DNA of 64,000 bases from a virus. Lineage: Duplodnaviria; Heunggongvirae; Uroviricota; Caudoviricetes. The stretch covers positions 1-64,000 of IMG/VR virus record IMGVR_UViG_3300037424_000495; one strand, 5' to 3'. Each line of letters begins with the position of its first letter. Position 1 is the first letter of the stretch. Position numbers and translations under genes: made by a program. Positions 7,256 through 53,852 of this stretch are shown one piece after another. The notes under the pieces are model-generated. The model did not search any database, was not told where the DNA came from, and saw only the letters and a program-made list of their open reading frames with translations.

Positions 7256-7268
7256 GGTGAGGTTGATT

Positions 7269-8288: not shown

Positions 8289-8300
8289 CAAGGTGCAGCG

Positions 8301-16344: not shown

Positions 16345-16797
16345 TTAAGCAGCTTTGCGGATTTTCCGTTTGGCGTTTTTTGTGGGTTTGCGAGATAGCT
16401 TACGGGCCATCTTCTTCTTGCTTCTGGGGACTGGCTCGTAGTTCGGCATGTCGTTTAACTCTGCCAGCAATACGCCTCGTTCAATCATCTCTTCGTAATG
16501 GATCAGAGCCATCGCATTGAACATGATAGCAGCCAGATGGTCTTCATCTTTTTTGCCTTGCTGGTATTTCATCAGGTGGCGTTTGAGAGACGCCACGCAC
16601 CGTGAGAAGGGCATTCCTTTCTCCCAGTTGCGTTCAGCGTATTTTCTAGCACCTAAGAGCAGCCAATGACCTTGACGTTCCTCGGCGAACGGTGAAATTA
16701 AATCAGGGCGAGGTTTATCGTCAGCCGTGTCGCGGATAGCTCGGTTCTCACCAAAAGATTGACGTTTACCATTATCAACCATACTGTATTTAGACAT
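16345..16797 (-). CDS. dATP/dGTP diphosphohydrolase N-terminal-domain-like phage protein
   Basis: Pattern ARKYAERNWEKGMPFSRCVASLKRHLMKYQQGKKDEDHLAAIMFNAMAL recalls the phage dATP/dGTP pyrophosphohydrolase domain; recalled from memory, not searched. Confidence 0.45.
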   Translation of the reverse strand: MSKYSMVDNGKRQSFGENRAIRDTADDKPRPDLISPFAEERQGHWLLLGARKYAERNWEKGMPFSRCVASLKRHLMKYQQGKKDEDHLAAIMFNAMALIHYEEMIERGVLLAELNDMPNYEPVPRSKKKMARKLSRKPTKNAKRKIRKAA

Positions 16798-31686: not shown

Positions 31687-31691
31687 TTGTA

Positions 31692-32534
31692 ATGGTAATG
31701 AATCTTGAACCAATTCCACAATACTCCGCGTACCCGTTGCCGGTAAGCAGCGTTTATTATGACTCGGATTTTAATTGCCGGGCTGAGTTCACGATGCAAT
31801 CGGTTAAGGATTTAGCGGACAGTGTCGCGGAGAATGGTCTTCAGTTTCCTCTTGTCGTGCAACCCTGGAAAAAGCAGTCTGGTTATAGCTATCGTCTACT
31901 CGCAGGTCACAGACGGTTCAAGGCGTTGACAGTCTTTTTACATTGGGACACCGTGCCGAGTATCATTCGTAAAAGACTCACTGACCATCAAGCCCGTTTA
32001 ATAAATGTTACCGAGAATCTGGAACGCAAGGATTTGAATATCTGGGAAGAGGCGCGTGCTTTGGAACGACTCTACCCTAAAGGCGTGACGTTGCGACAGG
32101 CGTCGAAGGAACTGAAACAATCAACAGATTGGGTGTTTGTTCGTTTACGGTTGCTGCGTATGCCGCCTGAAGTGCAACAGAAAGCAGCGGCCGGTTTATT
32201 GTCTCAAACAAATTTAAACGCGATAGCGGGTTTAAAAAAACCGGAAGATCAAATTCTAGCCGCCGGTAAGATTGCTGCAGCGAGAATTGCTGGGAAAGGG
32301 AAGCGGCTCCCAGGCGTCGAAAGAGTGTTTAAACGCCGCACCGCCACGGTGCGTTCTAAGGAAGAAATCAATCGGATGGTTGAACGAATGTTGTCAGCCG
32401 GCATCGATGGATTGGCTCCACGGGTTGGGGTGTGGTGTGCTGGCAACATATCAGATGAAGATTTATGGGCAGACGTTGAAAGTGCTCCAAAATTTCATCC
32501 GCCTATTGATCCAACTGTAGAGGAAGAAACATGA
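31692..32534 (+). CDS. ParB-like nuclease domain protein (second copy)
   Basis: YRLLAGHRRFKALTV ParB N-terminal motif. Confidence 0.6.
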   Translation: MVMNLEPIPQYSAYPLPVSSVYYDSDFNCRAEFTMQSVKDLADSVAENGLQFPLVVQPWKKQSGYSYRLLAGHRRFKALTVFLHWDTVPSIIRKRLTDHQARLINVTENLERKDLNIWEEARALERLYPKGVTLRQASKELKQSTDWVFVRLRLLRMPPEVQQKAAAGLLSQTNLNAIAGLKKPEDQILAAGKIAAARIAGKGKRLPGVERVFKRRTATVRSKEEINRMVERMLSAGIDGLAPRVGVWCAGNISDEDLWADVESAPKFHPPIDPTVEEET

Positions 32535-35610: not shown

Positions 35611-36000
35611 ATGGGAAACTGGAATATCACTATACAAGGGATTGGTAGTCACGGTAACGGTAAACCTGAAATCGACGCTGATTTATTGGCTGTGGATTTT
35701 GTGAATTATCTACAGTCAAGGGGCCAAATAATAGAATCGGCTAGTTTTACCTGTGGTGGAAAAGTCGATTTGATTGAAAAGAGTGGGCGTGTGAAAATAC
35801 TGGTCAACGGCGTTTCTTATAAATCTCTACATACAGTGTCTTATGAAGAGGTAAAGAAACTAGCAGGATTCATTGCCCCAGTCGTTACTATAACATTCCG
35901 AAAAGCAAAGTTTGAAAACGCAGGGATTCTTGGACTGGGGCAATCTATCAAAGTCATCGATGGAACAATCTTTGACGTGGCTGATACAAGTAATGTTTAA
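35611..36000 (+). CDS. hypothetical protein
   Basis: ORF in track with GAGG-containing RBS. Confidence 0.5.
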   Translation: MGNWNITIQGIGSHGNGKPEIDADLLAVDFVNYLQSRGQIIESASFTCGGKVDLIEKSGRVKILVNGVSYKSLHTVSYEEVKKLAGFIAPVVTITFRKAKFENAGILGLGQSIKVIDGTIFDVADTSNV

Positions 36001-41492: not shown

Positions 41493-42404
41493 ATGTCCTC
41501 AACTATTTCAAGTCTGACTAATCGCGGACTAATAAGTCCACCGACATGGCTGCCTGATAACATCGTCTTCGAGGGTGTGCAAGGAAGCAATGCCTACGGT
41601 GTGGCAGTTGACACGTCCGACTTTGATATTATTGGCTTCTGTATTCCGCCGAAAGATTTGATCTTCCCGCATCTTGCAGGCGAGATTGAAGGTTTTGGAC
41701 GCCAAAAGAAACGCTTTGTCTGCTACCAGAAGCACCATGTTCGCGACCAGCAAGCACAGAATGGAGCCGGGCGTGAATATGATTTCAACGTCTACAACAT
41801 TGTCCACTATTTTAATCTGGCAATGCAGAATAATCCAAATATGCTAGCCAGCTTGTTTCTACCGGCCGATTGCATTCTTTTCACAACTCGAATCGGTGAG
41901 ATGATTCGCGACAAGAGGCATATCTTCTTACATAAAGGTGCATGGCACCGTTTCAAAGGCTATGCCTACAGTCAATTGTCTGAAATGGGTAAGAAACCCG
42001 ACTCTGGTAGCAAGCGGGAAGCCCTGGTGCAAAAGTTCGGTTTCGACGTAAAATTTGCGTATCATCTTGTCCGCTTAATGTTCGAGATAGAACAAATCTT
42101 AACTACCGGCGACCTCGATCTGCGAAGAAACGCAGAAGAACTAAAAGCGATTCGTCGTGGTGAGATACCCGAATCAGAGATTCGGAACTTTTTCGCCGAT
42201 AAAGAAAAGTTTCTCGAAGGTTTGTACGAGAAATCAAATCTGCCTTGGGGACCGCGTGAGGCAGAGATCAAGCAATTGCTCTTGGACTGTTTGGAAGAAC
42301 ATTATGGCAGCCTTGAAGATTGTGTCGTGACCGAAGCTGATCCGTTAAGAGCATTGCGTGAGATTGCGTCCATTGTCGATGACAACCGGCATCTGTTGAG
42401 GTAA
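41493..42404 (+). CDS. Pol-beta superfamily nucleotidyltransferase (RlaP/YcgL-like)
   Basis: GSNAYGVAVDTSDFDIIGF (GS..G......SDxD) nucleotidyltransferase motif. Confidence 0.55.
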   Translation: MSSTISSLTNRGLISPPTWLPDNIVFEGVQGSNAYGVAVDTSDFDIIGFCIPPKDLIFPHLAGEIEGFGRQKKRFVCYQKHHVRDQQAQNGAGREYDFNVYNIVHYFNLAMQNNPNMLASLFLPADCILFTTRIGEMIRDKRHIFLHKGAWHRFKGYAYSQLSEMGKKPDSGSKREALVQKFGFDVKFAYHLVRLMFEIEQILTTGDLDLRRNAEELKAIRRGEIPESEIRNFFADKEKFLEGLYEKSNLPWGPREAEIKQLLLDCLEEHYGSLEDCVVTEADPLRALREIASIVDDNRHLLR

Positions 42405-42407
42405 GGA

Positions 42408-42824
42408 ATGGCGCAGAGATTCAGGATTGGTTTGGGTCGAAACGACGATGAGACTTTCACGTTCGACGTAGTTCTCTACAAGAATCATCGTCAACTTCAA
42501 CGGTCTTATCGTCATTGTGCCAAGCAGGATCGCGGTGCCGAACCGAAGCGGACACGTATCGGTGCGTTCACCACTGAGTATTACTGGTCAAAGCATTCGC
42601 AAGAAATTGGGTCCATTCGATTTTCGACAGAACATCTGACTGAGAAGTTTATTGTCCACGAATCTACACACGCAGCATTGCATCTTGCCAGGTACATGGA
42701 CAAATATGCCGGTGGATTCAGGAGTAAACGTGCCCGCGAGGAGTTGGTGGCGATAGCCACGGATGTGATCTACATCGAGATTTGTCAGCACGTAAGAAAA
42801 CGAAAACTGAAGATAGGGCGGTGA
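42408..42824 (+). CDS. hypothetical protein
   Basis: ORF in track, immediately downstream of the NTase. Confidence 0.45.
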   Translation: MAQRFRIGLGRNDDETFTFDVVLYKNHRQLQRSYRHCAKQDRGAEPKRTRIGAFTTEYYWSKHSQEIGSIRFSTEHLTEKFIVHESTHAALHLARYMDKYAGGFRSKRAREELVAIATDVIYIEICQHVRKRKLKIGR

Positions 42825-42825
42825 A

Positions 42826-42996
42826 ATGATTATGACCGACTACACCAATGAAACATCAGAGCAATTGTTAACTGAATTAGTGCGCCTACGGCAAGAGATT
42901 CGATTGTGTCAAAGGCCAGTTGACCAGAAATGCAAGGACGCAGAGGTAATTTATGGCGTTTTGATGCAACGTGGTATCGATCCTGATTCACACTGA
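42826..42996 (+). CDS. small hypothetical protein (56 aa)
   Basis: MIMTDYTNETSEQLLTELVRLRQEIRLCQRP...; below the ORF-track cutoff; preferred over the antisense track ORF 42830-43204. Confidence 0.35.
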   Translation: MIMTDYTNETSEQLLTELVRLRQEIRLCQRPVDQKCKDAEVIYGVLMQRGIDPDSH

Positions 42997-42997
42997 A

Positions 42998-43531
42998 ATG
43001 ACTCGATCTACCCTCATCTATGAAGCGGAATTGTTTGCGCGTGAAGCACATGCGAGGCAGGTTCGTAAATACACGGGGATGCCATATATCGTCCACCCGA
43101 TGAACGTGGCCAAAATCGTGTCCGAAGTCACCGACGATCCAGTCACAATTGCCGTGGCATGGTTGCACGATACCGTGGAAGACACGAGTGTCACATTCGC
43201 CCAAATCGGAACACTGTTTGGCCGGGAAGTCGCTGACTTAGTGGCAGACGTGACGAACATCACGAAGAAGACAGACGGCAACCGCGCGTTTCGTAAGGCA
43301 TTGGAGCGGACCCATCTGGCGATGGCAGCCCCGAAAGCGAAAACTGTCAAGTTGGCGGACATGTTGGACAACATTCCCAGCACAGTGCAGTACGATCCAG
43401 GCTTCGCAGTTACTTACGTGGACGAGAAACGCCGGCTGCTGGGCTACCTACGCGCAGGCAATCGCACGCTTTGGGATCGTGCAGTGCGACTCATCGAACA
43501 GAGCACTGAACTTTTGAGGAGGAAGACATGA
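42998..43531 (+). CDS. HD-domain (p)ppGpp hydrolase, small alarmone hydrolase SpoT/Mesh1-like
   Basis: HARQVRKYTGMPYIVHP...AVAWLHDTVEDT...FGREVADLVADVT matches the RelA/SpoT HD hydrolase signature. Confidence 0.7.
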   Translation: MTRSTLIYEAELFAREAHARQVRKYTGMPYIVHPMNVAKIVSEVTDDPVTIAVAWLHDTVEDTSVTFAQIGTLFGREVADLVADVTNITKKTDGNRAFRKALERTHLAMAAPKAKTVKLADMLDNIPSTVQYDPGFAVTYVDEKRRLLGYLRAGNRTLWDRAVRLIEQSTELLRRKT

Positions 43532-43708
43532 ATTTAACCCGCGAGAAACTACTGGAATTGATTCGACGTTGGAATTATGCGAGTGAGGTAGATCACCGTA
43601 TCAAAGAATTGAATCAATACGGTAGTGCTGCCAGTGGCTCCCAACAGGTAATCGACGCCGCACTCGACGATGTGCTTGAAATTCTTAACGAAAGGCCAGT
43701 GCAATGAC
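43529..43708 (+). CDS. small hypothetical protein (59 aa)
   Basis: GAGGAGG RBS; ATGA overlap with the upstream stop. Confidence 0.4.
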
Positions 43709-43717
43709 TATTTCAAG

Positions 43718-44092
43718 TCACTCCCGGCGCTTCGCGAGTATAGGGACACCTTCGGAGAGAAGCCGGTCTAATTCCGTCCGGGGTATTTTCCAGCGACCAC
43801 TTGAATCCTTGACACCTTTGATATCGCCCTGAATGCACAGTTGGCGGATAGTCCAAGCAGACCGACTAAGATAAACGCCGGCTGCGGCTGCATTCAAGTA
43901 GACAGCCCTCGGTTTAGGCACATCACTTACATGCGAGAGGATTGTGTCATTTAACTGTTCAACATGTTTAATATGTTGCATCTGTTCAAGAAGAACATTG
44001 TTAAAAGTGTCATAAACAGTGTCACGCACAGTGTCACGAATAATTTGTCTTAATAAATCGTCAATAGTTTGTGTAGTCATATTAGCCTCCAT
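43718..44092 (-). CDS. excisionase/AlpA-like HTH DNA-binding protein
   Basis: RAVYLNAAAAGVYLSRSAWTIRQLCIQGDIKGVKDSSGRWKIPRTELDRLL helix-turn-helix (Xis family); the lone minus-strand gene in a + strand block. Confidence 0.6.
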   Translation of the reverse strand: MEANMTTQTIDDLLRQIIRDTVRDTVYDTFNNVLLEQMQHIKHVEQLNDTILSHVSDVPKPRAVYLNAAAAGVYLSRSAWTIRQLCIQGDIKGVKDSSGRWKIPRTELDRLLSEGVPILAKRRE

Positions 44093-44163
44093 GTCATTTA
44101 TTGTAATCGCTTCCTAAATTCTGTAAAGCTAAATTCTGAGAGCGTTTAAACGCGCTGCATAAC

Positions 44164-44892
44164 ATGACAAAAAGAAATCCAAAACAAGACGGCAGTAATT
44201 TATTCGATTGTATACCGCAGATCGGCCCCTGTCCAATCGGCTGCAACGCTTGCTTCTACAACCGGCCCGGTGCATTCTATCTCCCAATCGATCAACCCAG
44301 CATCCCAACGTCTGAGGAAGTAGGTGATGGAATTGTGCGAATGAATTGCGGCAACGATAGCAATAATCAACGCGATCTTGTAATTGAGACTGCTAAGCAA
44401 TACAAGCACGCTTTCTTCAACACCAGTATTCCACGTTTTGACTTTCCTGGCCCTGTCGTTTGGACCGCAAATCCTTGTGAGGAGCAATATGTGCGCATCC
44501 CGCCTGCATTGCAATGCGAGATTCCCAGCAACTTGATGTTTATTCGTTTGCGAGTATCAAGCACAAATCTTTTTCGCATTAAGTTGGCTGCCGAATGGTT
44601 CAACGCAAAACAAGTGCCAGTTGTCTTAACATTCATGGCTTATTATGAGACGGAGCCAATGGTGCCAACTGACGTACTCACCGCTGTCGGTGGACCGTGC
44701 TACGAATGGAAAGTACGTCACATCAATTCATATTTCTGTCCTACCCCTGCGTTCATTCGGTATGTCATGAGTCTCTTTAAAGGCAACCGCCTTGTATCAT
44801 ACTGTGGCAGCCTCGAAGGATCATACTGCCGACTGTGTCTAAACTGCGAAACATATTACCACCAGGCAGTTAAACGAATGAAGGGCGAGTAA
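44164..44892 (+). CDS. hypothetical protein
   Basis: ORF in track. Confidence 0.45.
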   Translation: MTKRNPKQDGSNLFDCIPQIGPCPIGCNACFYNRPGAFYLPIDQPSIPTSEEVGDGIVRMNCGNDSNNQRDLVIETAKQYKHAFFNTSIPRFDFPGPVVWTANPCEEQYVRIPPALQCEIPSNLMFIRLRVSSTNLFRIKLAAEWFNAKQVPVVLTFMAYYETEPMVPTDVLTAVGGPCYEWKVRHINSYFCPTPAFIRYVMSLFKGNRLVSYCGSLEGSYCRLCLNCETYYHQAVKRMKGE

Positions 44893-45413
44893 TGCGGCGA
44901 ATCAATATCTTCGGCGGTCCTGGTGTCGGTAAATCAACACTGGCCGCTCAAATCTTTGGACATTTGCGTCAACAAGGTCAATCAGCCGAATTGGTTCAAG
45001 AATGGTTTAAAACTTGGGCCTATGCCGGCCATCAAGCTAAATCATTTGATTACGTCTATGCTTTTGCCAACCAATTACATGCCGAGGACCAATTGCTGCA
45101 AGCAGGCGTCAAGATAATTATTTCTGACAGTCCGATGTACTTGCAGTGCATTTATGCGTATCGCCATAAATTGCCGTTTGCAGGTGAACTTTTGCAAATC
45201 GCAAAAAGGTTTGAAGCAACCTATCCCTCTATCAATTTTGTTATCGACCGGCCTCAATTTCAAGTCTACGAACAAGCAGGTCGCTATGAAACTCTTGACC
45301 AAGCGATAGAAATGGACCGTTTCATTGTGCAATTATTGGATGACTTTTGGGCCATTCCGTTTAAACGTGTTCGACCAGGTGACTTAAATGCAATACTCAA
45401 GGAGCTTGTATAA
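44892..45413 (+). CDS. P-loop nucleoside/nucleotide kinase-like protein
   Basis: Walker A INIFGGPGVGKSTLA close to the N-terminus; ~170 aa size typical of dNMP kinases. Confidence 0.55.
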   Translation: MRRINIFGGPGVGKSTLAAQIFGHLRQQGQSAELVQEWFKTWAYAGHQAKSFDYVYAFANQLHAEDQLLQAGVKIIISDSPMYLQCIYAYRHKLPFAGELLQIAKRFEATYPSINFVIDRPQFQVYEQAGRYETLDQAIEMDRFIVQLLDDFWAIPFKRVRPGDLNAILKELV

Positions 45414-45415
45414 AC

Positions 45416-46120
45416 ATGTATAAATATCTTTTGATTCTCTGTTTGGTATTTATTGGCTGCCAAGAGCCAGCGAAACCTAAGTCGCCACAGCCCGATCCAC
45501 TGCGAACCTTGCAGACAGATATACGACACATTGCGCACGTCCGCCCGAGCGGTAGTGCCGCAAATCAGCAAGTGGCCAATTATCTTGCTCGCGAGTTGCA
45601 AAAATCCGGCTTCCAAGTTACACGTCAACCTTTTAATAAAGGTACGAACATTGTCGGTATTCGCCGTGGATCTTCAGCCCGGACTATCATTATTGGCAGC
45701 CATTATGATAGCGTGAACTGTCCAGGAGCCGACGATAACGCTTCCGGTTGTGCTGTAAATCTACTTGTTGCTCGGCAGCTTATAAAGCAGAAACTCAATC
45801 ACACATTGACTATTATCTTCTTTGACGCTGAAGAAATTGGACTTGTTGGATCAAATTACTACGCCAAGTCGATGACAGCAAAATGCGACTTGATGATTAA
45901 CCTCGACATGGTAGGCAATCTTCATGTCTCAAGTACACCGGACGCCATATTCAACGACCTCTACCGTAAATATCCGTGGGCACGCAACATTTCTTTTAGA
46001 ACCGGCGACGCTCCAAGCGACCACACACACCGTTCAATGCGAAAGGCATTCCCGTCGTCTGGGTCTTTACTGGCACACATCCTCGTTACCATGAATCAAC
46101 AGATGTGCCTTCAAGTTTAA
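45416..46120 (+). CDS. M28-family zinc aminopeptidase lipoprotein
   Basis: Lipobox LVFIGC; M28 motifs IIGSHYDS, GADDNASG, FFDAEEIGLVGS, NLDMVG. Confidence 0.7.
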   Translation: MYKYLLILCLVFIGCQEPAKPKSPQPDPLRTLQTDIRHIAHVRPSGSAANQQVANYLARELQKSGFQVTRQPFNKGTNIVGIRRGSSARTIIIGSHYDSVNCPGADDNASGCAVNLLVARQLIKQKLNHTLTIIFFDAEEIGLVGSNYYAKSMTAKCDLMINLDMVGNLHVSSTPDAIFNDLYRKYPWARNISFRTGDAPSDHTHRSMRKAFPSSGSLLAHILVTMNQQMCLQV

Positions 46121-46237
46121 ACTACAGCGGAATGATTCTAATTTCGCAGTATGTTTGCGACATTGCACGCAGCTTCGATAAACAAATAAATACTACCTTC
46201 CTCAACTCTCTTCAGCCTTTAACCAACGAGGTATTCA

Positions 46238-46384
46238 ATGGGCGGAATAGTAACACTGATAATTAGCCTGCTTGCAGGAGCCATTGTCATCACCATGACT
46301 TGCGAGGCTCCAGTAGCCATTGTAACTGTCTGTGGTGTAGTGATAGTGGCTGCAATCATCGCCAAAGCCAAAGGTACGATATGA
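46238..46384 (+). CDS. small hydrophobic membrane peptide (48 aa)
   Basis: MGGIVTLIISLLAGAIVITMTCEAPVAIVTVCGVVIVAAIIAKAKGTI; below the track cutoff; ATGA overlap with the next gene. Confidence 0.35.
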   Translation: MGGIVTLIISLLAGAIVITMTCEAPVAIVTVCGVVIVAAIIAKAKGTI

Positions 46385-47418
46385 GCGACACGATTTGGAC
46401 GCCGTTACAAGCCGATATAGTCACCCCGAAATGGTGCGACGGCACAGCTTTTTATTATCCCACTCAATCTAAACCTTTATCGCTAACAGCGTACAATCAA
46501 ATAGTTCAAATTAGAAATGCAATTGTTCCCAATGCACTCAGGGACGAATGGCTACTGGATAAAGCGCTTACATGTACCGAAATTAAAACATTCAAGGAAG
46601 CCATTAACGAGCATCAATTTAATTATCCTTGGACAATCACGCCCGGCAGCGAGAAGTATTTTCACGCCGACGACATCAATGAACTACGTCGTTTGGCGAC
46701 TTACCCGAATACTTTAAAACAAATTGTTACCAATGAGTCCGCAATCCTTGATGAGTGGTGCATCGAGTATGTAACTAGCGGTATGCAGATATTGGCAGAA
46801 TGTGCTGGCAGTAGTTCAGAAGGTTGGCAATCATTTGTCGGCACCAAAGTAGCAGATGAAAACACTTCACATCGTTTTTGGATTTGGACTCAATACCCTG
46901 AGTATCATGATTGGTTAGGGGCCAGTGTTGGAATCATTGGACTCGACGGACGCATCAAAGCACCGATTGGTGGATCGGCCACCGAAGCAGGCGATTGGCA
47001 GTCTGGCCCGCAGTCTGGACAACATGATAACGCCAACTGGTGGCTAATTCAATTGGTCCAAGATATCCATAGTCCACTCAATGAAGTAGCCACAGTAACG
47101 AAGCCTCTAAAAGGTTTGATTTTCGGACAAGAAGAACACTATACCACCACCACTGAAATATACTATGAAAATTGTGTCCCGGCTACCGGCGACACGCAGG
47201 GCACCGTAGACAAAGTAACTAGATACACATGGTCAAGTAACTGTAACTATTGGGTATCGACGTATGTGCAACATCTAACTCATTGGCACACAAGTTGTGA
47301 CTGGTACAACAGTCACGTAACTTACACTTCAACAGGCACGTCACCAGCAGAATTTGATCTAATTGAAATCGGTGAAAGTTTCTTTCATACGTGGGAATTC
47401 TATATGGATCAACTTTAA
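46381..47418 (+). CDS. hypothetical protein
   Basis: ATG MSDTIW...; the track ORF begins further upstream at a non-ATG codon. Confidence 0.5.
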   Translation: MSDTIWTPLQADIVTPKWCDGTAFYYPTQSKPLSLTAYNQIVQIRNAIVPNALRDEWLLDKALTCTEIKTFKEAINEHQFNYPWTITPGSEKYFHADDINELRRLATYPNTLKQIVTNESAILDEWCIEYVTSGMQILAECAGSSSEGWQSFVGTKVADENTSHRFWIWTQYPEYHDWLGASVGIIGLDGRIKAPIGGSATEAGDWQSGPQSGQHDNANWWLIQLVQDIHSPLNEVATVTKPLKGLIFGQEEHYTTTTEIYYENCVPATGDTQGTVDKVTRYTWSSNCNYWVSTYVQHLTHWHTSCDWYNSHVTYTSTGTSPAEFDLIEIGESFFHTWEFYMDQL

Positions 47419-47923
47419 TATGACTACGCCAACTGTCTTAGATGTAATACACCCGTTTCAAGATATCTCGACGCAACTAGCACATTTAAAGATCGAAAGT
47501 GTTGATTTAGGTGATTGGCCTTCCTGTCTCTGGCGACTTTTTGAAATTAAATCAAATCAAACTGTCAATCCTGTCTGCGGGCACAAAAATAAGTATGGCA
47601 CACTAAATAACTCTCTTTGTCAAAACTGCAGGTCTCGACGGCCATTGATTGGCCCCATTGTAGAGGGGCCAATTATAAAAGGGCCGGGTGACCTCCTACA
47701 TGACGCTATTACTACCGTCTTCGGTGAAGAAGCCAGAAAAAGTTGCCACTGTAACAAACACATTGCACAGATGAATCGATGGGGTGCCTCTGGTTGCCGG
47801 GAACACATTGAAGAAATCGTACAGTGGCTTTATGACGAAGCACTCCGACGTGGCTGGAAAGCAGTGCAACTACCTTTATCCAGAATCTTTATAAAACAAT
47901 TTATCCTTGACGCAATCGCATAA
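47418..47923 (+). CDS. hypothetical Cys-containing protein
   Basis: Internal ATG MTTPTVLDV... of track ORF 47363-47923. Confidence 0.4.
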
Positions 47924-48020
47924 GTTGTACAGACAACTCTAATTTTAACTGACTCTGTTGATCTAACTTTAGAGTCAGAAATCTTGTCAACAACCGTCAA
48001 CTGTCTCGAACCCTGCACCC

Positions 48021-48668
48021 ATGTCAGAAGTCACAATCACCGTTGAACGTATTGAGGCCATTAAACCGCATCCAAATGCGGACAAAATGGAAATTGCCGA
48101 AGTAGCCGGCACTCAAACCCTTGTTGGCAAAGACCAATTTAAGGTTGGTGATTTAGCAGTCTATTTTCCACCTGACATTTTAATCCCCGGAGAAGTCTCC
48201 GAGGCTCTAGGTGTCGCAAAATATCTCAAGACCGCTCTCTATGGCGGCTTGCGTGTGCCTTGTCGCGTGGCGGCTTGCCGACTACGTGGCGTGCCGAGCT
48301 ATGGCTTTGCTCAACCGTTGACGGTTTTGGGAACTGTTGATCTACGCCAGATTCATGTCGGCAAAGATGTAACTGAAACCTTTCGTGGCCTCAAGTACGA
48401 GCCAGTGGTTAAGGTTCAGCGTGGGCACGGTGGCGGCACAGGTGAAGTCTGGGGTGGCTTGGCTCCCGAACCAATTAACTTCCACCGTTACACTGACATT
48501 CAGCATTACCGCAAATACAGGCATTTGCTTGCGACAGAGACGCCAGTGCGCATAACCGAAAAAGTACACGGTTGCCTAATGTTCCAGGAACGTATCACAA
48601 TGGTAGACGGGTCCAAGAAAAAGATTGGACACACGTCCGCATTGGTGATTTTGTTCTTGGGGTTGTGA
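48021..48668 (+). CDS. RNA ligase N-terminal segment: tRNA-binding (Myf/EMAP-like) domain, motif I lysine, start of intein
   Basis: IKPHPNADKMEIAEV...VGDLAVYFPPD tRNA-binding fold; EKVHG (ligase motif I) followed by intein block A CLMFQERITMVDGSKKKI; ORF stops shortly after an A5 run. Confidence 0.6.
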   Translation: MSEVTITVERIEAIKPHPNADKMEIAEVAGTQTLVGKDQFKVGDLAVYFPPDILIPGEVSEALGVAKYLKTALYGGLRVPCRVAACRLRGVPSYGFAQPLTVLGTVDLRQIHVGKDVTETFRGLKYEPVVKVQRGHGGGTGEVWGGLAPEPINFHRYTDIQHYRKYRHLLATETPVRITEKVHGCLMFQERITMVDGSKKKIGHTSALVILFLGL

Positions 48669-49639
48669 ATGGACAAGTCGTTCCGAGCCAAGTATTAAAC
48701 GTCTTTAATAACGGTCGCAGCGACCGCTGGCTCAAGGTGACATTCACACGGCGACTTGCGGGTCGGGGCGGCAACAATGTTGGCACAATACATTGCACAC
48801 CGAATCACTGCTTCTGGACGCCGGATAAAAATGACTACACACCAGCCAGTGAGTTGCGTGTTGGAAATCTCGTCAATTTACTTCGCTCTGACACCGATCT
48901 AACCCCAGTCCAGCACGCTATCTTGCCACCGACCGCAACACATTACAAGCCGCTTCTAGTCTCGCAGCGTGTTGTCGCTATTGAAGAATACATTGCTCCA
49001 CGAGCAAACCGCTATGACATTGAAACCGAAACACATAATTACTTCGCTAATGGTGTTTTGACTCACAATTCTAATTCGCGCGTGGGGCTTCTGAAAGTTG
49101 ATGGCGAATGGCAATTTGTTGCCGGCTCCCATAAGACTGCCCGCAAGCAGATTGATCCTGAAGGGCGAGAATCCGTGTACTGGTCTCCACTTCAGGATTT
49201 TAATGTGTTGCGGATGCTTACCGATATGTGCAATGAAGCCAACGATATTATTCTATTCGGTGAGTTATACGGTCCTGGAGTTCAAGACTTAGACTATGGG
49301 ATTCCTGCCGGTGACATTGGTTGGCGGATGTTTGATATCACTGCGAATGGAGAATACTTGGACTGGGGTCTCATTGCATTCTTATCCATGCACTACGATG
49401 TGCCCACTGTTCCGCTGCTTTATTCAGGTCCATTCAAACGGGAGTTGATCGACGAATTGACTTGTGGCCCGACGACTGTCGTCTCGGGGACCGAGATCAA
49501 ATCCAAATTCAAAGGTCGTGAAGGGATCGTCATTACACCATTGGTAGAAGAGACATGCAGCATTGGCCGTCTAATTCTAAAGTCTGTCAGCGCGGATTAT
49601 TTAGACAGGAAGGGAGCAGAAGACAATGGTGACATCTAA
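48572..49639 (+). CDS. remainder of the mini-intein plus the RNA ligase nucleotidyltransferase domain (Rnl2-like), in the -1 frame relative to the upstream segment
   Basis: Intein block B TPNHCFWT and C-terminal YDIETETHNYFANGVLTHN|S; extein motifs ILFGELYG (III), GWRMFDI (IV), KGREGIVIT (V), LILKSVSADY (VI). Confidence 0.6.
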   Translation: MPNVPGTYHNGRRVQEKDWTHVRIGDFVLGVVNGQVVPSQVLNVFNNGRSDRWLKVTFTRRLAGRGGNNVGTIHCTPNHCFWTPDKNDYTPASELRVGNLVNLLRSDTDLTPVQHAILPPTATHYKPLLVSQRVVAIEEYIAPRANRYDIETETHNYFANGVLTHNSNSRVGLLKVDGEWQFVAGSHKTARKQIDPEGRESVYWSPLQDFNVLRMLTDMCNEANDIILFGELYGPGVQDLDYGIPAGDIGWRMFDITANGEYLDWGLIAFLSMHYDVPTVPLLYSGPFKRELIDELTCGPTTVVSGTEIKSKFKGREGIVITPLVEETCSIGRLILKSVSADYLDRKGAEDNGDI

Positions 49640-50510
49640 CACGTGCTTAACATCTGACGATCAATTGTTCACAAAAAATCGAAGCCGTGAAGCTCCATCT
49701 TTTGCAAATATCAATCTTCTCGGCCGATGTAATGTAGACTGTTATTTCTGCCTGGGAAAAGATATCCCAGACTTGCTTGCGCCTCATAACCAATTGACAA
49801 CACACTTTTTGCAGTGGAATAATTGGCTGGATTTCCTGATAACGTGCCAGCAACACAACATTCGTAAGCTGTATGTCACCGGCCAGAACACCGACAGTTT
49901 ACAGTATCGGTATCTTGCAGAATTGATTAACTATTTGCACAGGTATGGCTTCCAAGTCGGACTGCGAACAAATGGCTACTTGGCATTGAAGCAAATGGCG
50001 GCCATAAACCAATGCGACTTATCGGTTGGCTACTCAATTCATACGCTCAAGCCAGATATAAACTTTCAGTTGATGAAACACCGCCGGCTACCAGAATGGC
50101 AAACTATTTTGGAAAAGACAAAGCGGCCACGAGTACAAATTGTTGTTACAAGACACAATGCTTCCGAAGTATTTGACATTATTAAATGGCTGTCACAATT
50201 TCCACATCTACGTTATGTACAAGTGCGGCGTGTCAGCAGCGACACTCGGCGTGAGGAATTAGCGCCCGACGCATTGGCTTATGATACGTTACTCTCGCAG
50301 GTACAGGATTTGTATCCACGAGAAAGTGTTCTATGGGGCACAGCAAGCATTTATCGAATACATGGGCTGCCAGTATGCTTCTGGCAAACAACAGCCACAA
50401 GTATCAACAGTTTCAACTACTTTACAGACGGCACTATCAGCCGTGAGTATTTTATTGTTGAAGGCTATAAGAAAGCCTTGCAAGGAGCCAAGTGTGACAC
50501 CAAAGTCTAA
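49626..50510 (+). CDS. radical SAM enzyme
   Basis: CNVDCYFC (CxxxCxxC) cluster-binding motif near the N-terminus. Confidence 0.65.
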   Translation: MVTSNTCLTSDDQLFTKNRSREAPSFANINLLGRCNVDCYFCLGKDIPDLLAPHNQLTTHFLQWNNWLDFLITCQQHNIRKLYVTGQNTDSLQYRYLAELINYLHRYGFQVGLRTNGYLALKQMAAINQCDLSVGYSIHTLKPDINFQLMKHRRLPEWQTILEKTKRPRVQIVVTRHNASEVFDIIKWLSQFPHLRYVQVRRVSSDTRREELAPDALAYDTLLSQVQDLYPRESVLWGTASIYRIHGLPVCFWQTTATSINSFNYFTDGTISREYFIVEGYKKALQGAKCDTKV

Positions 50511-50985
50511 AGAAATCATACTATTATCCTTACGTGGCTTACTTATAGCCCAATGTCTTTTCCTTTTACTACCATACAGTATCGGCTGGTGGTATGACCA
50601 TACTGGACCACACGCTTCCGAACAACTTTGGCTTAATAAAGCTATTACGCATTGCAAACAGATGCGAGCAGCGTGCGTCGATCCCGATCTCTGCGATATC
50701 CTTGACTACACCATTCAACGCTATCACCGCATCGGCGGCTTTGATGTAGCTGTTATGCCTTGCTTCACTCCCGATGATAGCGACGGTGGTTACGTGATTG
50801 GTATAAATATGCCAACATGCCCGGGAATGTGTATTGACCCAAAAGTTTTAAATTACCCAATTGAAATAGGCGCGATGGTTGTAGTTCATGAGGCCATGCA
50901 CGATTACCGGCCGTGGTGGGGCCACAATCACATCAATGAACGTGAACGCAAACTCTATGACCTTTCCTACAGTGTAAGGAGATAA
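50493..50985 (+). CDS. secreted/membrane HExxH zinc-metallopeptidase-like protein
   Basis: GTG after AGGAG; signal-like LLSLRGLLIAQCLFLLLPYS; HEAMHDY motif. Confidence 0.4.
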
Positions 50986-50987
50986 CG

Positions 50988-51665
50988 ATGGATTATACTC
51001 GCGAACAAATTTTAAGCGTCTTGGACATTGCGGTTCTACGACCGGCTGCACCCTTATTAGAAATTCAAGAGGCTGCTATTGAAGTAGAGCGGCAGAACAT
51101 GGCTTCCGTATGCGTCACCTCAGCTAACGTGGCGTTTGCCCGGCGGTTCACAAAACGAGTTTGTGCTGTCGTTGGTTTTCCACACGGCAACACGTTACCG
51201 CAAATCAAAGCCGTTGAAGCACAGAATGCGATCAAAGATGGGGCGGTAGAAATTGATTTTGTTCTTAATTACGGACATTTTCTGTCCGGCGATATCCGAA
51301 CTGTCGAAGAAGAATTGCAATTATTGTCACAGACACGTGCGGAAGTATACGGATGCAAATTAAAAGCGATTCTTGAAACATGCTACTACCATCCTTCACA
51401 AATCGCAACAATCAGTGAGCTTTGCATCAGCTATGGCATGGACTTTATAAAAACATCGACAGGCTTCGGTCTGGAGACGGCTATTTATGCTAGTCTACCT
51501 GACGCACTTCAAGTAATCCTTAACACAATCAAAAAGTGTAATAGCCGCACGAAGGTTAAAGCCAGCGGCGGTATTCGATCTTACGCAGATGCGTGTAAAT
51601 ATCTGGATATGGGCTGTACACGTTTAGGCGTCAGCTATCAAAACTATGAGAATTTGCTGCCATGA
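50988..51665 (+). CDS. deoxyribose-phosphate aldolase (DeoC/DERA family)
   Basis: VVGFPHG, Schiff-base lysine context IKTSTGF, KASGGIR. Confidence 0.75.
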   Translation: MDYTREQILSVLDIAVLRPAAPLLEIQEAAIEVERQNMASVCVTSANVAFARRFTKRVCAVVGFPHGNTLPQIKAVEAQNAIKDGAVEIDFVLNYGHFLSGDIRTVEEELQLLSQTRAEVYGCKLKAILETCYYHPSQIATISELCISYGMDFIKTSTGFGLETAIYASLPDALQVILNTIKKCNSRTKVKASGGIRSYADACKYLDMGCTRLGVSYQNYENLLP

Positions 51666-51889
51666 AAATACCTGCTGGTTACATCGTGGAGAAACGCCTA
51701 CGAAACATCTTAGGCGAACCGCATGAAGAAACGATTCTCACGCACCCTTGTGGTTCCTACATCGCCTGGTGTGTTCAAATCCAAGCTGATGGCACACCGT
51801 CCCACAAGAGACTGAAATCTATGAAAATAGAAGTCTCAAAAATAATAGACCAACACATTGCGTACTTTAATTTAAACCGCGCGGCATAA
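51662..51889 (+). CDS. small hypothetical protein
   Basis: ORF in track. Confidence 0.35.
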   Translation: MKIPAGYIVEKRLRNILGEPHEETILTHPCGSYIAWCVQIQADGTPSHKRLKSMKIEVSKIIDQHIAYFNLNRAA

Positions 51890-51891
51890 CA

Positions 51892-52476
51892 ATGACTAAA
51901 CATAAAATGAATCGTTTAGCTTTCAACCGATGCTACTTATGCGGTCCTATGGACCGTGTTCCAGACGGTGGAATCGGTTGGCGTCAAAAGCTTATCCACG
52001 ATCTGAAAGACTTAAAAATCAATTGGCTCAATCCATGCTGTAAACCTATTGACATAGGTGTCGAAGATTTGGAGAGCCGCGCGGCACGGAATTACGCCAA
52101 GCAAATGGGCGATTTTGGCTATGTGCAAACCCAAATGCAACAAATTTGTCCGGTTGACTTGCGGATGGTCGATATAAGCGATCTCTTAATCGTCAATCTC
52201 GATCTAGCTGTCCATGCGACAGGGTCGTATGAGGAACTTTTCCGCGCTAATAACCTTGGTAAACCGATTTTAGTGCGAATCGAGCAAGGAATTGAACATA
52301 CGCCGGATTGGCTCTTGGGTCGCCTCCCTCTCGAAATGCTTTTTTCTACTTGGGACCAAGTTAAAACCTATGTGCGGCATATTGCACACGATCCAGTTAT
52401 TGACCGACTGAATCGATGGTTCTTTTTCAATTACACCGGTGAATATCCACACAAAAAGAAAAACAGCAAGCATTAG
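51892..52476 (+). CDS. nucleoside 2-deoxyribosyltransferase-like (NDT/DNPH1-type) protein
   Basis: CYLCGPM near the N-terminus and DLLIVNLDLAVHATGSYEELFRANNLGKPIL resemble the NDT family YLAGP / D..GT.fE.G signatures. Confidence 0.55.
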   Translation: MTKHKMNRLAFNRCYLCGPMDRVPDGGIGWRQKLIHDLKDLKINWLNPCCKPIDIGVEDLESRAARNYAKQMGDFGYVQTQMQQICPVDLRMVDISDLLIVNLDLAVHATGSYEELFRANNLGKPILVRIEQGIEHTPDWLLGRLPLEMLFSTWDQVKTYVRHIAHDPVIDRLNRWFFFNYTGEYPHKKKNSKH

Positions 52477-52485
52477 AGTTCAACT

Positions 52486-52708
52486 AATGAAACCTGATTC
52501 AAGCACACCAAAACGATCATTCTTGAAAGCCTTATCCTGGGAAACTTTCTCGAATCTTATCTGCTTCGTACTTGCCATTGCTATGTTTGGCAACATTGGC
52601 GGATGCGTAGCATTCACTATTCTTGCATTCATTGTGAAACTGATTCTTTATTATTGGCATGAACGTATTTGGCACCAAATCCCTTTCGGAAAGAACATAC
52701 GTGAATAA
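52486..52708 (+). CDS. small membrane protein
   Basis: Two hydrophobic helices FSNLICFVLAIAMFGNIGG / AFTILAFIVKLILYYW. Confidence 0.4.
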
Positions 52709-52862
52709 AACAGCAAAGACACTTCTTGAAATTGGTTGCGGTTTGGCACTCACCGGCGGTGCGGGTTTTGCATGGAATGCTTGGCAAATTAACGGATGGT
52801 TAGCCTGTTTTATTGCTCTTACAGGTCTCACGTTAATAACACATCCTTTTACAGTTGACTAA
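52659..52862 (+). CDS. small membrane protein
   Basis: Hydrophobic TLLEIGCGLALTGGAGF / WLACFIALTGLTLI. Confidence 0.35.
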   Translation: MNVFGTKSLSERTYVNKTAKTLLEIGCGLALTGGAGFAWNAWQINGWLACFIALTGLTLITHPFTVD

Positions 52863-52981
52863 CGATCCTCACGGGAGCCGGGGAGGTTGTCCAGCGAATC
52901 CGGGCTGGCGGTAAGGTTGGAGCATCAAGATTACTGGTCCGGCAGTAAGACTGACGCAGTACCCGGCTCTAGGAAGTAATT

Positions 52982-53236
52982 ATGCGTAAGACATGCAGAC
53001 AATGCAATAAACCCGTAGCCTTTGAAGGCTGTGCCAGGTGTGAAAATTGCTACGAAGTCGAAAGACGCCTTGAAGAATACCTCAGCCATCCGCGTGGTTT
53101 AGAGTTCGTATGTAATCTTTTAAAAACACAAGAAATTCAACGCAATCTCGAAGCGTTTGAACGCGGAGACTTTAAACCACTTTCGCAAGTGATCGAAGAC
53201 CTGCGGATTAAAATCAAAGAGGCTGAACATGGTTAA
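52982..53236 (+). CDS. small zinc-finger protein
   Basis: CRQCNKP...CARCENC; AGGAAG RBS. Confidence 0.4.
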   Translation: MRKTCRQCNKPVAFEGCARCENCYEVERRLEEYLSHPRGLEFVCNLLKTQEIQRNLEAFERGDFKPLSQVIEDLRIKIKEAEHG

Positions 53237-53852
53237 TTGGGAAGAAGCACAAAAACACGAAGCAGAATACTGGCAAAATTGCCTTGGTATGAGAGCCTGG
53301 GGTGAATTCTGCAAGCAGGAAATGTACGCCCGTGAAATGGGCCTATGGGATGCCTATGGCAACGGCCTAGGTGAATTACAGATGCAGGGCAAATCTGTCC
53401 TCGATGTCGGCGGCGGTCCTGTATCCATGACTCTTCGCTGTCTGGACGCTTCCCGATTGCTCGTAGTTGATCCGTGTGAGTGGCCGTCGTCAGTTTTACG
53501 GCGTTACCATAATTACGGTATTCAATTCGTCCGGCAACCGTGTGAAGACTTAGATAAGATATTTCTTGAACCAGCAACATGCTATGACGAAGTATGGATT
53601 TACAACGTACTTCAACACGTTCAAGACCCTGTCAAAGTCATGCAAAATGCAATTGCGCGTGTTGCTCCCGGCGGCGTTCTTCGTGTCTTCGAGTGGTGCT
53701 ATATACCGGCGGACGCTTGCCATCCACACGTTCTGACTCCCGAGGGATTGCTTACCTGGCTGACTGGTACACGCATCTTGCAAGTACGAATTCCACGTCT
53801 CAAAGAATTTTGGTCTGACGCAACCGCATTCTGTGGTGTTTTCGGGCGTTAG
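53229..53852 (+). CDS. class I SAM-dependent methyltransferase
   Basis: Motif I VLDVGGGPVSMTL. Confidence 0.6.
   Translation: MVNWEEAQKHEAEYWQNCLGMRAWGEFCKQEMYAREMGLWDAYGNGLGELQMQGKSVLDVGGGPVSMTLRCLDASRLLVVDPCEWPSSVLRRYHNYGIQFVRQPCEDLDKIFLEPATCYDEVWIYNVLQHVQDPVKVMQNAIARVAPGGVLRVFEWCYIPADACHPHVLTPEGLLTWLTGTRILQVRIPRLKEFWSDATAFCGVFGR

Follow-up and report, generated by a model that had tools for sequence, protein, structure and literature searches.

A DeoC aldolase and an NDT-superfamily protein as a candidate minimal deo shunt in an uncultured phage

Which of the genes for nucleotide- and deoxyribose-related enzymes clustered in a phage genome belong together, and do they serve to modify its DNA or to reshape its nucleotide pool? 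This question is raised by the window, i.e. the whole stretch of 64,000 nucleotides that was analysed, which originates from an uncultured phage whose host is probably a member of the Planctomycetota. The original prediction assembled five of its genes into a possible DNA-modification or precursor-salvage pathway. All five are real and carried by the + strand:

44892..45413, +, AAA_28 P-loop NTPase/kinase, 173 aa (Pfam AAA_28, 48.4 bits; phrog_2107)
49665..50510, +, CxxxCxxC radical SAM enzyme, 281 aa from a TTG start (the ATG ORF begins at 49626); accessory
50988..51665, +, DeoC, deoxyribose-5-phosphate aldolase (DERA), 225 aa; core gene 1 (NCBIfam TIGR00126, PDB 1j2w)
51892..52476, +, NDT-superfamily protein, 194 aa (homologues begin at Met 51907); core gene 2
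53229..53852, +, class I SAM-dependent methyltransferase of small-molecule/RNA type, 207 aa; accessory (Methyltransf_23/11/12, phrog_3603)

The five-gene cluster is rejected as a unit. The functional unit consists of the DeoC and NDT-like genes, often accompanied by a gene for a small membrane protein of the DUF2061 family. The accessory genes, which encode the radical SAM enzyme, the methyltransferase, the AAA_28 protein and a Cys-rich protein of 242 aa, belong to a variable island.

The DeoC and NDT-like proteins and their pairing

DeoC reaches 155.5 bits against the NCBIfam equivalog TIGR00126 (cutoff 117.3) and matches the DERA of PDB entry 1j2w (E 2e-30) with its catalytic Lys/Asp motifs aligned, DfV, lKaILET, FiKTSTGF and vKAsGGIR being retained. 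As the catalytic motifs are also preserved in 23/23 intact phage DeoC sequences from related loci, the window protein is, by equivalog score and motifs, a bona fide DERA.

The fold of the NDT-like protein is that of NDT, DNPH1 and MilB, although sequence identity is only 13–22% across its top NDT-family matches. Its family displays conserved residues compatible with an active site, namely the Tyr of YxxG and the invariant Glu residues of GTxEE. Several members pass the Pfam NDT thresholds; the window protein itself scores below them. Its closest known counterparts are DNPH1 and DmtZ, a phage enzyme (2026); fold, motifs and neighbours lead to the prediction of a 2'-deoxynucleoside 5'-monophosphate N-glycosidase, including its likely substrate and base specificity. 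From DNPH1/Rcl (a 2'-deoxynucleoside 5'-monophosphate N-glycosidase) and MilB/BlsM (CMP/hmCMP N-glycosidases), the phage family also differs by being longer (~180–200 aa), viral and DeoC-paired and by its additional invariant basic residues (R22, R31, K51, K70, R91 and K124).

Three small genes flank or separate the pair:

50617..50985, +, small HExxH protein just 5' of DeoC (VVHEAMH, motif read from the translation)
51662..51889, +, 75-aa ORF between DeoC and the NDT-like gene, no family match
52487..52708, +, DUF2061 small membrane protein (Pfam PF09834, 36.4 bits)

The HExxH protein has no match in the Pfam scan; in about 20 related loci, a homologue precedes DeoC. The 75-aa ORF gave no match in Pfam, PHROG and NCBIfam scans; a weak homologue (33% identity) occupies the same position in L131, and most related loci lack it. 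The DUF2061 gene lies downstream of the NDT-like gene in 23/80 viral loci and also follows it in L131-133, L135, L136, L138 and L139; P0240 is an apparent NDT-DUF2061 read-through.

Among 93 NDT-like loci, DeoC is the only one of the clustered genes that accompanies the NDT-like gene; the cluster is not a single conserved pathway. In 32 of these 93 loci, a same-strand DeoC gene lies no more than 300 bp upstream of the NDT-like gene; the count rises to 34 for a distance of 3 kb. A stricter same-strand count retained 30 DeoC-NDT pairs (26 related loci and the window), 17 of them with gaps ≤10 bp; clustering at 90% identity sorts the pairs into 22 groups, whose NDT proteins share as little as 50% identity. 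In most related loci, the two genes typically show a 4-nt stop/start overlap.

Most DeoC-linked loci share a DNA ligase, a 333-aa protein and an N6 methyltransferase with the window. They thus come largely from related phages, and inherited synteny could explain some of the adjacency. At the extreme, the two genes would be mere neighbours kept by common descent in one phage lineage, with no functional coupling. This seems improbable, as the adjacency outlasts the loss of the other shared genes (L038, L043 and L044 keep the pair and share no other window gene), extends down to 50% NDT identity and usually involves overlapping genes. Furthermore, the predicted product of the NDT-like protein, 2-deoxyribose-5-phosphate (dR5P), is the substrate of DeoC. 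About 49 more distant NDT-like loci have rIIA/rIIB-like neighbours and no DeoC, so a phage DeoC is not required by the hydrolase.

Other neighbours belong to purine metabolism. In L037, L134, L067 and L137, the NDT-like gene is closely followed by a GMP reductase gene (NF003470, 437–501 bits; cutoff 397); L037 and L134 have an XPRT/HGPRT-like PRTase gene between the two, which gives L037 the order DeoC-NDT-PRT-GuaC. Such neighbours, together with the tight and often overlapping DeoC-NDT pairing, point to ordinary purine deoxynucleotide metabolism, and the conserved Tyr and Glu residues form a motif typical of NDT/DNPH1. It is thus unlikely that the NDT-like protein is a counter-defence enzyme directed against a nucleotide immune signal or a toxic nucleotide, or a TIR-like enzyme acting on NAD or ADPR, with DeoC incidental or only removing the product.

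The accessory genes and DNA hypermodification

An RNA-repair block and an orphan gene lie upstream of the radical SAM gene:

41493..42404, +, RlaP nucleotidyltransferase, RNA repair (Pfam PF10127, 60.3 bits)
42971..43531, +, small alarmone hydrolase, HD_4, RelA/SpoT/Mesh1-type (Pfam HD_4, 66.2 bits)
44164..44892, +, Cys-rich orphan protein, 242 aa, with an N-terminal CPIGCNAC motif and a C-terminal Cys cluster
48021..49639, +, PHA02142-type RNA ligase, intein-interrupted and split over two frames (Pfam PHA02142, RNA_ligase, Intein_splicing)

The P-loop gene sits in this block, with RlaP (whose role is described in PMC7824862), the alarmone hydrolase and the RNA ligase. Its product matches phrog_2107, named 'thymidylate kinase' in PHROG (3e-13), and a PDB search retrieved no relative; in L001, a 279-aa homologue overlaps the start of the radical SAM gene. 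The RNA ligase gene, directly upstream of the radical SAM gene in the window, has its frame break in an A5 run (48617-48621), and its homologues are single ORFs in L001 and L131. The 242-aa protein has no match in Pfam, PHROG and NCBIfam scans and 677 homologues at E≤0.001; the 120 listed have no Pfam domain, and all source names given are 'hypothetical protein'. Profile comparison revealed no similarity to radical SAM enzymes except the Cys motif.

The radical SAM enzyme is a member of a large, uncharacterised family whose core resembles MoaA and viperin. The only invariant cysteines of this family are the three of CxxxCxxC, none corresponding to auxiliary clusters, and its distinct invariant motifs are TGQNTD and NYFTDGT, features that separate it from MoaA, viperin and GDGT-MAS. 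NCBIfam scores fall far under the cutoffs for MoaA (35 vs 284) and viperin (26.5 vs 180). Assignment to QueE, viperin, NrdG or MoaA was rejected, family searches giving no such class; HMM classification thus fits none of the subtypes suggested earlier (QueE-like, viperin-like or anaerobic RNR activase). The methyltransferase (Methyltransf_23, 33.5 bits; phrog_3603, 4e-31) has only a weak best PDB match, the tRNA methyltransferase CmoM (E 0.006). Of the four DNA methyltransferases announced for this phage, the window contains three confirmed ones (at 22446, 36018 and 57927); a fourth was not identified there.

The suggestion of hypermodification arose because known modification clusters, such as the phage thymidine-hypermodification and Dpd/7-deazaguanine clusters, can hold radical SAM enzymes and P-loop kinases. 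Accordingly, the radical SAM enzyme, the NDT-like protein, DeoC and the methyltransferase would form a single pathway modifying a nucleotide precursor or the phage DNA. Indeed, DeoC-NDT is preceded, at a distance of 0–2.7 kb, by a radical SAM gene encoding ~280–290 aa in the window, L001-type phages, L038, L043 and L044; the gene of the last three is a paralogue that is only distantly related (hhalign probability 86%, E 5.5e-6). Moreover, MoaA and viperin, the nearest structural relatives of the enzyme, act on nucleoside triphosphates, and an IMPDH/GuaC-family gene comes after the radical SAM gene in L114. The recurrence of two distantly related radical SAM families beside DeoC-NDT in two lineages leaves room for a three-enzyme pathway.

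The distribution of these genes nevertheless makes the hypermodification pathway rather unlikely. The radical SAM and methyltransferase genes are missing from L131, the closest relative, whose gene order is otherwise the same. The window-type radical SAM family co-occurs with the NDT-like gene in 1/80 viral loci, DeoC/NDT occurs in only one of 36 radical-SAM-anchored loci, and an HMM search located a ~290-aa radical SAM paralogue at a distance of up to 3 kb from the NDT-like gene in only 3/93 loci, most DeoC-NDT loci having no such gene. The usual neighbours of this family elsewhere are RNA-repair genes. The methyltransferase is present in just 3/80 NDT loci, and DeoC is a catabolic enzyme that acts on free dR5P and does not modify DNA. 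Furthermore, Pfam scans of 36 of the longer ORFs of the window and precomputed Pfam assignments for L145, its 10-kb downstream extension, revealed no dUMP/dCMP hydroxymethylase, DpdA/TGT, QueC/D, glycosyltransferase, PurZ or aGPT-Pplase-type gene. The genes defining the Dpd, 7-deazaguanine and thymidine-hypermodification clusters (5-hmdU synthase/5-HMUDK, aGPT-Pplase, DpdA/TGT, FolE/QueD/QueC/QueE) were thus looked for and not found in the scanned window ORFs, nor did ~74 kb yield any PurZ/DatZ/DpoZ homologue or other hallmark gene of DNA hypermodification. Both the radical SAM gene and the methyltransferase gene are read as optional add-ons, outside any DNA-modification pathway.

The radical SAM neighbour suggests another role for the pair, the disposal of 5'-deoxyadenosine, an inhibitory radical SAM by-product, as in the DHAP shunt. 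The known route of 5-deoxyribose salvage likewise uses a nucleosidase and an aldolase, the adjacency occurs in two lineages, and L038, L043 and L044 also carry a NifU Fe-S scaffold gene. Such a role is extremely unlikely: DeoC is a dR5P-aldolase equivalog and 5-deoxyribose is not 5-phosphorylatable, the conserved NDT/DNPH1 Tyr selects 2'-deoxy substrates, and the radical SAM gene is not nearby in most DeoC-NDT loci.

DmtZ and the Z-genome phages

A more specific DNA-related hypothesis stems from one further window gene:

16345..16797, -, DUF5664/PF18909 protein, dATP/dGTP diphosphohydrolase-like, 150 aa (Pfam PF18909, 71.4 bits)

Such an activity is reported for members of this family in PMC12884076, and the window protein could, by analogy, supply purine dNMPs. 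With the NDT-like protein and DeoC, it would convert dATP into dAMP and then into adenine and dR5P, excluding dATP from a 2-aminoadenine (Z) or other purine-substituted genome, as DUF5664/DutZ and DmtZ do. [quoted passage not shown] A Z genome is nonetheless very unlikely. Searches with PurZ, DatZ and DpoZ of phiVC8 (tblastn, E≤10) returned nothing credible in the window, L145 or any related locus, and no scanned ORF matches Adenylsucc_synt. The HD_4 protein was rejected as a DatZ, its PDB matches being Lmo0812, the RelA hydrolase domain and MESH1 (E 1e-15 to 1e-18). Phages with canonical genomes also carry DUF5664 proteins. Finally, a tblastn search of 50,697 phage records with the NDT-like protein gave a single weak match, to an uncultured 595-kb phage record, and therefore no detectable similarity to any Ghobes/Wayne DmtZ in that collection.

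DmtZ remains an instructive relative: like the window protein, it is a phage-encoded NDT-superfamily enzyme with the same catalytic Tyr and Glu logic, and it reshapes the nucleotide pool, as is proposed for the NDT-like protein. According to PMC12884076, DNPH1 and DmtZ convert dNMP, dAMP for DmtZ, into base and dR5P, in an in vitro assay coupled to DeoC. The window phage differs in having no PurZ0 or DutZ partner; DeoC is the partner here, and PRTase and GMP reductase elsewhere; the parts of the DmtZ paper that were read mention no DeoC partner for it.

A putative two-enzyme deo shunt

The best reading of the DeoC/NDT pair is nucleotide salvage or pool rebalancing rather than DNA hypermodification; the earlier idea of precursor salvage is thus supported, but among the clustered genes only for this conserved, often translationally coupled pair, with its predicted hand-over of dR5P. 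Most likely, the two proteins act in turn on deoxynucleotides, releasing the free base and a sugar phosphate and then degrading the sugar. A minimal deo shunt, whose substrates, flux direction and physiological role are deduced from fold, motifs and neighbours, is given a probability of roughly 55%. The NDT-like protein, as a DNPH1/DmtZ-type N-glycosidase, would hydrolyse a dNMP, probably a purine one, into free base and dR5P, and DeoC would cleave dR5P into glyceraldehyde-3-phosphate and acetaldehyde. As in the bacterial deo operon (deoC-deoA-deoB-deoD), deoxyribose would end at DeoC and free bases would be released; unlike in this operon, a single dNMP hydrolase would replace the phosphorylase and phosphopentomutase steps, DeoA, DeoB and DeoD being absent here.

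That a phage should destroy dNMPs is counter-intuitive, which is a point against such a shunt.

The dNMPs drained by the shunt would be chosen ones, originating for example from host DNA or from a phage DUF5664-type dATP/dGTP diphosphohydrolase. The sugar carbon would enter glycolysis and the base would be left for salvage, by steps that some lineages may encode themselves through a purine PRTase and a GMP reductase. If this holds true, the phage would rebalance the nucleotide pool.

The DeoC and NDT-like gene pair

The genes named in the original prediction (radical SAM, DeoC, NDT-like, methyltransferase and P-loop genes) exist at their predicted coordinates, as confirmed by Pfam, NCBIfam and PHROG matches. 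Almost all plausible genes at 44.1-55.2 kb lie on the + strand, with short spacing; those that matter here are the following:

44164-44892 (+): 242-aa Cys-rich orphan protein, upstream of AAA_28
44892-45413 (+): AAA_28 P-loop protein
49626/49665-50510 (+): radical SAM enzyme, motif CNVDCYFC; PF04055, 30.3 bits
50988-51665 (+): deoxyribose-phosphate aldolase, DeoC; NCBIfam TIGR00126, PDB 1j2w
51892-52476 (+): NDT-like protein; PF05014, 19.9 bits (weak)
53229-53852 (+): class I SAM methyltransferase; Methyltransf_23, 33.5 bits; phrog_3603, 4e-31

That these genes form a single unit, as had also been proposed, is not borne out by their distribution. Among the 80 IMG/VR loci of a collection of 93 anchored on the NDT-like gene (the other 13 being genome loci), tblastn detects DeoC in 28, DUF2061 in 23, the 242-aa protein in 21, AAA_28 in 5, the methyltransferase in 3 and a radical SAM gene of the window type in only 1. 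The last two genes are also missing from the closest relative, the Thermoguttaceae MAG contig L131, where the order is RlaP, 242-aa protein, AAA_28, RNA ligase, HExxH protein, DeoC, 75-aa ORF, NDT, DUF2061, SEC-C protein and 333-aa protein.

The association of DeoC with the NDT-like gene is, by HMM search, a close one: of the 93 loci, 32 have DeoC at most 300 bp from the NDT-like gene and 34 at most 3 kb from it. In each of the 30 pairs counted, DeoC is upstream of the NDT-like gene on the same strand, and in 17 of them the gap does not exceed 10 bp, the stop and start codons mostly overlapping by 4 nt. Clustering of the pairs at 90% identity gives 22 clusters, with NDT identity as low as 50% between them, and three loci (L038, L043 and L044) retain the pair without any other window gene. 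DeoC is lacking in some 49 NDT-like loci of more distant relationship, whose neighbours are rIIA/rIIB-like. A small conserved protein with a metalloprotease-like HExxH motif is encoded directly 5' of DeoC (50617-50985, +) and occupies the same position in about 20 related loci.

The identity of DeoC is clear. Its whole-protein score (155.5 bits) exceeds the curated equivalog cutoff of TIGR00126 (117.3), and it aligns with the Thermus DERA 1j2w (E 2e-30), including the catalytic Asp/Lys motifs. The motifs of class I DERA, with the Schiff-base Lys and the Asp/Lys relay, are all present (DxV, LKxILET, FxKTSTGF and VKAxGGIR), and they are likewise intact in the 23 phage DeoC homologues with intact sequence. 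The tblastn matches of DeoC in INPHARED are short unannotated 'phage' records, which may be host-derived, two Salmonella genome records in which the matching gene is annotated deoC, and huge uncultured phages.

The window NDT-like protein scores below the Pfam thresholds (19.9 vs 28.8 bits for PF05014; 18.4 vs 30 for PF15891), two members of its family, P0375 (30.8) and P0500 (31.2), exceed the NDT thresholds, and the protein has the flavodoxin-like NDT fold. The family is strongly conserved and unannotated; at E<=1e-3 it is represented by 1,201 of the 1.84 billion clusters at 50% identity. In the PDB, neither the single sequence nor the profile found a match. In the alignment, an N-terminal YLCGAMDR motif is conserved and a GTYEE motif is invariant; Y15 is kept in 90% or more of the sequences, and D89, D94, D97, E114 and E115 are invariant (26 sequences). 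Judging from these motifs, the YLCGAMDR, Asp and GTYEE residues would correspond to the Tyr/Asp/Glu residues that serve catalysis in NDT, DNPH1 and DmtZ, and the invariant basic residues R22, R31, K51, K70, R91 and K124 appear compatible with a phosphorylated substrate. A search for fusions covered 1.84 billion representative proteins; of its ten longest candidates, which were scanned, three carry HNH/AP2 homing-endonuclease extensions and the others no informative extra domain.

Predicted breakdown of dNMPs

The pair is predicted to carry out a two-enzyme breakdown of dNMPs serving salvage or pool rebalancing, a reading to which we give slightly better than even odds (about 0.55). The NDT-like protein would hydrolyse a dNMP to the free base and 2-deoxyribose-5-phosphate (dR5P), and DeoC would then cleave dR5P into glyceraldehyde-3-phosphate and acetaldehyde. 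The base would be salvaged by a host or phage phosphoribosyltransferase (PRTase), and by GMP reductase where it is encoded. The observations comprise the identities of the genes, the fold, the residues that are conserved and the retained adjacency; the substrates, the flux direction and the role are predicted from them.

The neighbours of the NDT-like gene in other lineages, in phage or MAG loci, bear on the fate of the base. Locus L037 (7361-10238) carries a full array of DeoC, NDT-like, PRTase and GMP reductase genes, L134 (6001-7975) carries NDT-PRT-GuaC, and L067 (3933-5871) and L137 (6001-7805) carry NDT-GuaC. The GMP reductase of L037 scores 437 bits on NF003470 (cutoff 397), and the PRTase has weak top matches to XPRT/HGPRT models. 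These neighbours point to purine metabolism, possibly that of guanine, and to recycling of the base that is set free.

A precedent for the first step is DmtZ, a phage NDT-family enzyme shown to hydrolyse dAMP to adenine and dR5P, in an assay coupled via E. coli DeoC; for DUF5664 proteins, the same paper reports hydrolysis of dATP and dGTP to monophosphates (PMC12884076, 2026). The window encodes one such protein, whose gene adjoins those of an RNase_T-like exonuclease and the primase-helicase:

16345-16797 (-): DUF5664/PF18909 protein, dATP/dGTP diphosphohydrolase type; 71 bits

The possibility of a Z-genome was therefore examined. The phiVC8 proteins PurZ, DatZ and DpoZ gave nothing credible by tblastn (E<=10) in the window, in the 10-kb extension just downstream (L145) or in the related loci, and the ORFs scanned had no Pfam match to Adenylsucc_synt or dUTPase. 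A Z-genome is rejected, on the phiVC8 searches, for the ~74 kb examined of the 129-kb contig. Over the same ~74 kb, the window phage differs from DmtZ phages, whose genomes carry PurZ0 and DutZ, in that this combination was not found. The HD protein at 42971 was also considered as a DatZ and rejected because it is a RelA/SpoT/Mesh1-type alarmone hydrolase.

The NDT-like protein itself gave, by tblastn against 50,697 phage records (INPHARED), a single weak match to an uncultured 595-kb phage record. It thus has no detectable similarity to any Gordonia/Arthrobacter phage sequence, and therefore none to any Ghobes/Wayne DmtZ among those records, which rules out its membership of the DmtZ clade. 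By analogy, it probably functions like DmtZ or DNPH1 although it lies outside this clade.

The radical SAM enzyme, RNA repair and other neighbours

The radical SAM enzyme belongs to its superfamily by its CxxxCxxC motif, its fold and a score above the PF04055 threshold (29.5 bits); the start of the public gene call, P0001, is the TTG at 49665. It has 767 homologues at E<=0.001, the best 120 of which share 50-67% identity with it (P0001, which is identical, excepted), and no tblastn match in INPHARED. None of the subtypes listed in the original prediction (QueE-like, viperin-like or RNR activase) fits, all NCBIfam scores being far under their cutoffs: 26.5 bits vs 180 for viperin/pVip (NF038283) and 20 vs 131 for NrdG (TIGR02495), whose partner NrdD was not found in the ORFs scanned. 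For QueE, a family-level score accompanied by FolE, QueD and QueC was not found. The radical SAM profile matches MoaA in the PDB (E 1e-7), with 35 bits on the MoaA model TIGR02666 vs a cutoff of 284; the C-terminal Cys triad of the auxiliary [4Fe-4S] cluster of MoaA was not found, the only invariant Cys in 29 sequences being the three of the radical SAM cluster. These sub-cutoff scores and the three invariant Cys place the enzyme outside the listed subtypes.

For the family, 36 loci were collected, and its neighbours differ between loci. The radical SAM gene abuts an RNA ligase gene in the window, in L096 (with RlaP and PTH2 nearby) and in L111, and is close to one in L001. Its neighbour is PTH2 in L122 and presumably, from a near-identical radical SAM pair, in L124; it is an alarmone hydrolase gene in L107 and an IMPDH/GuaC-family gene in L114. 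In the window, the RNA ligase (48021-49639) is co-located with RlaP, AAA_28 (44892) and a Metallophos protein (30892), in keeping with the known phage RNA-repair module of an ATP-grasp-type RNA ligase, RlaP and end-healing enzymes (PMC7824862). Genes of this kind are:

14206: second SPFH protein
30892: Metallophos protein
41493: RlaP, RNA-repair gene
L145:12246-15532, just past the 3' end of the window: TROVE/Ro60+vWA protein and 447-aa Band_7 protein

A facultative link of the radical SAM enzyme with DeoC-NDT may exist. It is entertained because, unexpectedly, a distant radical SAM relative of ~290 aa is encoded directly 5' of DeoC-NDT in L038, L043 and L044 (hhalign: probability 86%, E 5.5e-6, 231 columns). 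In this second phage lineage, a gene for a NifU-like Fe-S scaffold lies near the paralogue (L038:5845-7357, L043:3528-6897, L044:4564-6478). The association of radical SAM with RNA repair is found in more lineages than that with DeoC-NDT. That the trio, which recurs in two phage lineages with radical SAM enzymes of two distantly related families, forms a previously unknown three-enzyme pathway is improbable in our estimate. In such a pathway, a MoaA/viperin-like radical SAM enzyme could act on a guanine (deoxy)nucleotide, and the NDT-like N-glycosidase and DeoC could dismantle or recycle the product. If this were true, the trio would be a new phage means of rewriting the purine deoxynucleotide pool, for example by making IMP/AMP precursors out of dGMP that is in surplus from a GC-rich host of the Planctomycetota, or, alternatively, by supplying an unseen non-canonical purine system.

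Several other features of these neighbourhoods were observed. A large RNA-repair/tRNA-conflict repertoire spans 41493-49639 (RlaP, HD_4 alarmone hydrolase, P-loop protein and RNA ligase) and continues in L145. The PHA02142-type RNA ligase (48021-49639, +) carries an intein immediately after its KVHG motif and is split over two frames at an A5 run (48617-48621), where one additional A would restore a continuous ORF; in L001 and L131 the homologous gene is one undivided ORF without intein. An M28-family peptidase gene (45416-46120, +), absent from most relatives, lies between AAA_28 and the RNA ligase, and the N-terminus of its product resembles a lipoprotein signal (MYKYLLILCLVFIGC). In L122, an island (2977-9918) encoding a radical SAM paralogue, NAPRTase, an A2-type radical SAM protein, PTH2, UDP-glucose dehydrogenase, a PF15891 protein (a second kind of NDT-like protein) and a Macro domain looks like an NAD/tRNA counter-defence island.

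The window methyltransferase is of the small-molecule/RNA type, with weak top matches to CmoM, CmoB and UbiG, and is sporadic; homology with the methyltransferase encoded beside the radical SAM gene of L114 was considered and rejected. The 242-aa protein has an invariant CPxGCxxC motif, a C-terminal CxxxxxxxCxxCxxC cluster and, at E<=0.001, 677 homologues from metagenomes. None of the 120 listed carries a Pfam domain, and all source names given for them read 'hypothetical protein'. The PDB gave no match to it, by single sequence or by profile, and a role as a second radical SAM enzyme was considered and dropped, since hhalign aligned the Cys motif only (probability 0.7%). Its gene, adjoining that of DNA ligase, is conserved throughout this phage lineage.

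Phage host and significance of the pair

The window comes from an uncultured tailed phage, with genes for a tape-measure protein, PolA, a primase-helicase, Endo VII and a DNA ligase, and for DNA methyltransferases, of which three are confirmed. Its 44-56 kb region gave no megablast match among deposited phages (INPHARED). Downstream of the window, the contig was extended by the 10 kb of L145; a 5.8-kb fragment was the only other sequence recovered. Promoter and terminator sites at 43.5-55.5 kb are no more numerous than in shuffled sequence. The replication region also encodes two ParB_N/HTH_ParB proteins and one weak, sub-threshold Multiubiquitin-domain protein (19820-20731, 31638-32534 and 35611-36000, +).

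The closest cellular relatives of the NDT-like gene lie on Planctomycetota MAG contigs (Thermoguttaceae, Planctomycetia and Planctomycetaceae), two of which, L136 (481 kb, Thermoguttaceae) and L141 (1.07 Mb, Planctomycetaceae), are very long. These two share a block of genes for DNA ligase, the 242-aa protein, DeoC, NDT, a SEC-C protein, a 333-aa protein and an N6 methyltransferase, partly fragmented in L141. The position of this block suggests integrated prophages, possibly decaying, and points to the host. Because of these relatives, the window phage is tentatively suggested to be temperate and to infect Planctomycetota. To our knowledge, only few phages of this phylum are described; an uncultured phage group is thereby tied to it.

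The pairing of DeoC with the NDT-like gene is a new form of the known manipulation of nucleotide pools by phages; literature searches combining DeoC, phage and deoxyribosyltransferase, also with radical SAM/MoaA-like terms, found nothing relevant in the library searched. The analysis also brings to notice two large families without assigned function, that of the radical SAM enzyme and that of the 242-aa Cys-rich protein. Phages are commonly viewed as hoarding deoxynucleotides. If the proposed reading is true, phages would possess a conserved route that destroys dNMPs, made up of an NDT-family N-glycosidase and a DERA, to which a purine PRTase and GMP reductase are sometimes added. Such a route would count as a distinct strategy of nucleotide-pool control, and the recently described DmtZ chemistry would reach beyond Z-genome phages.
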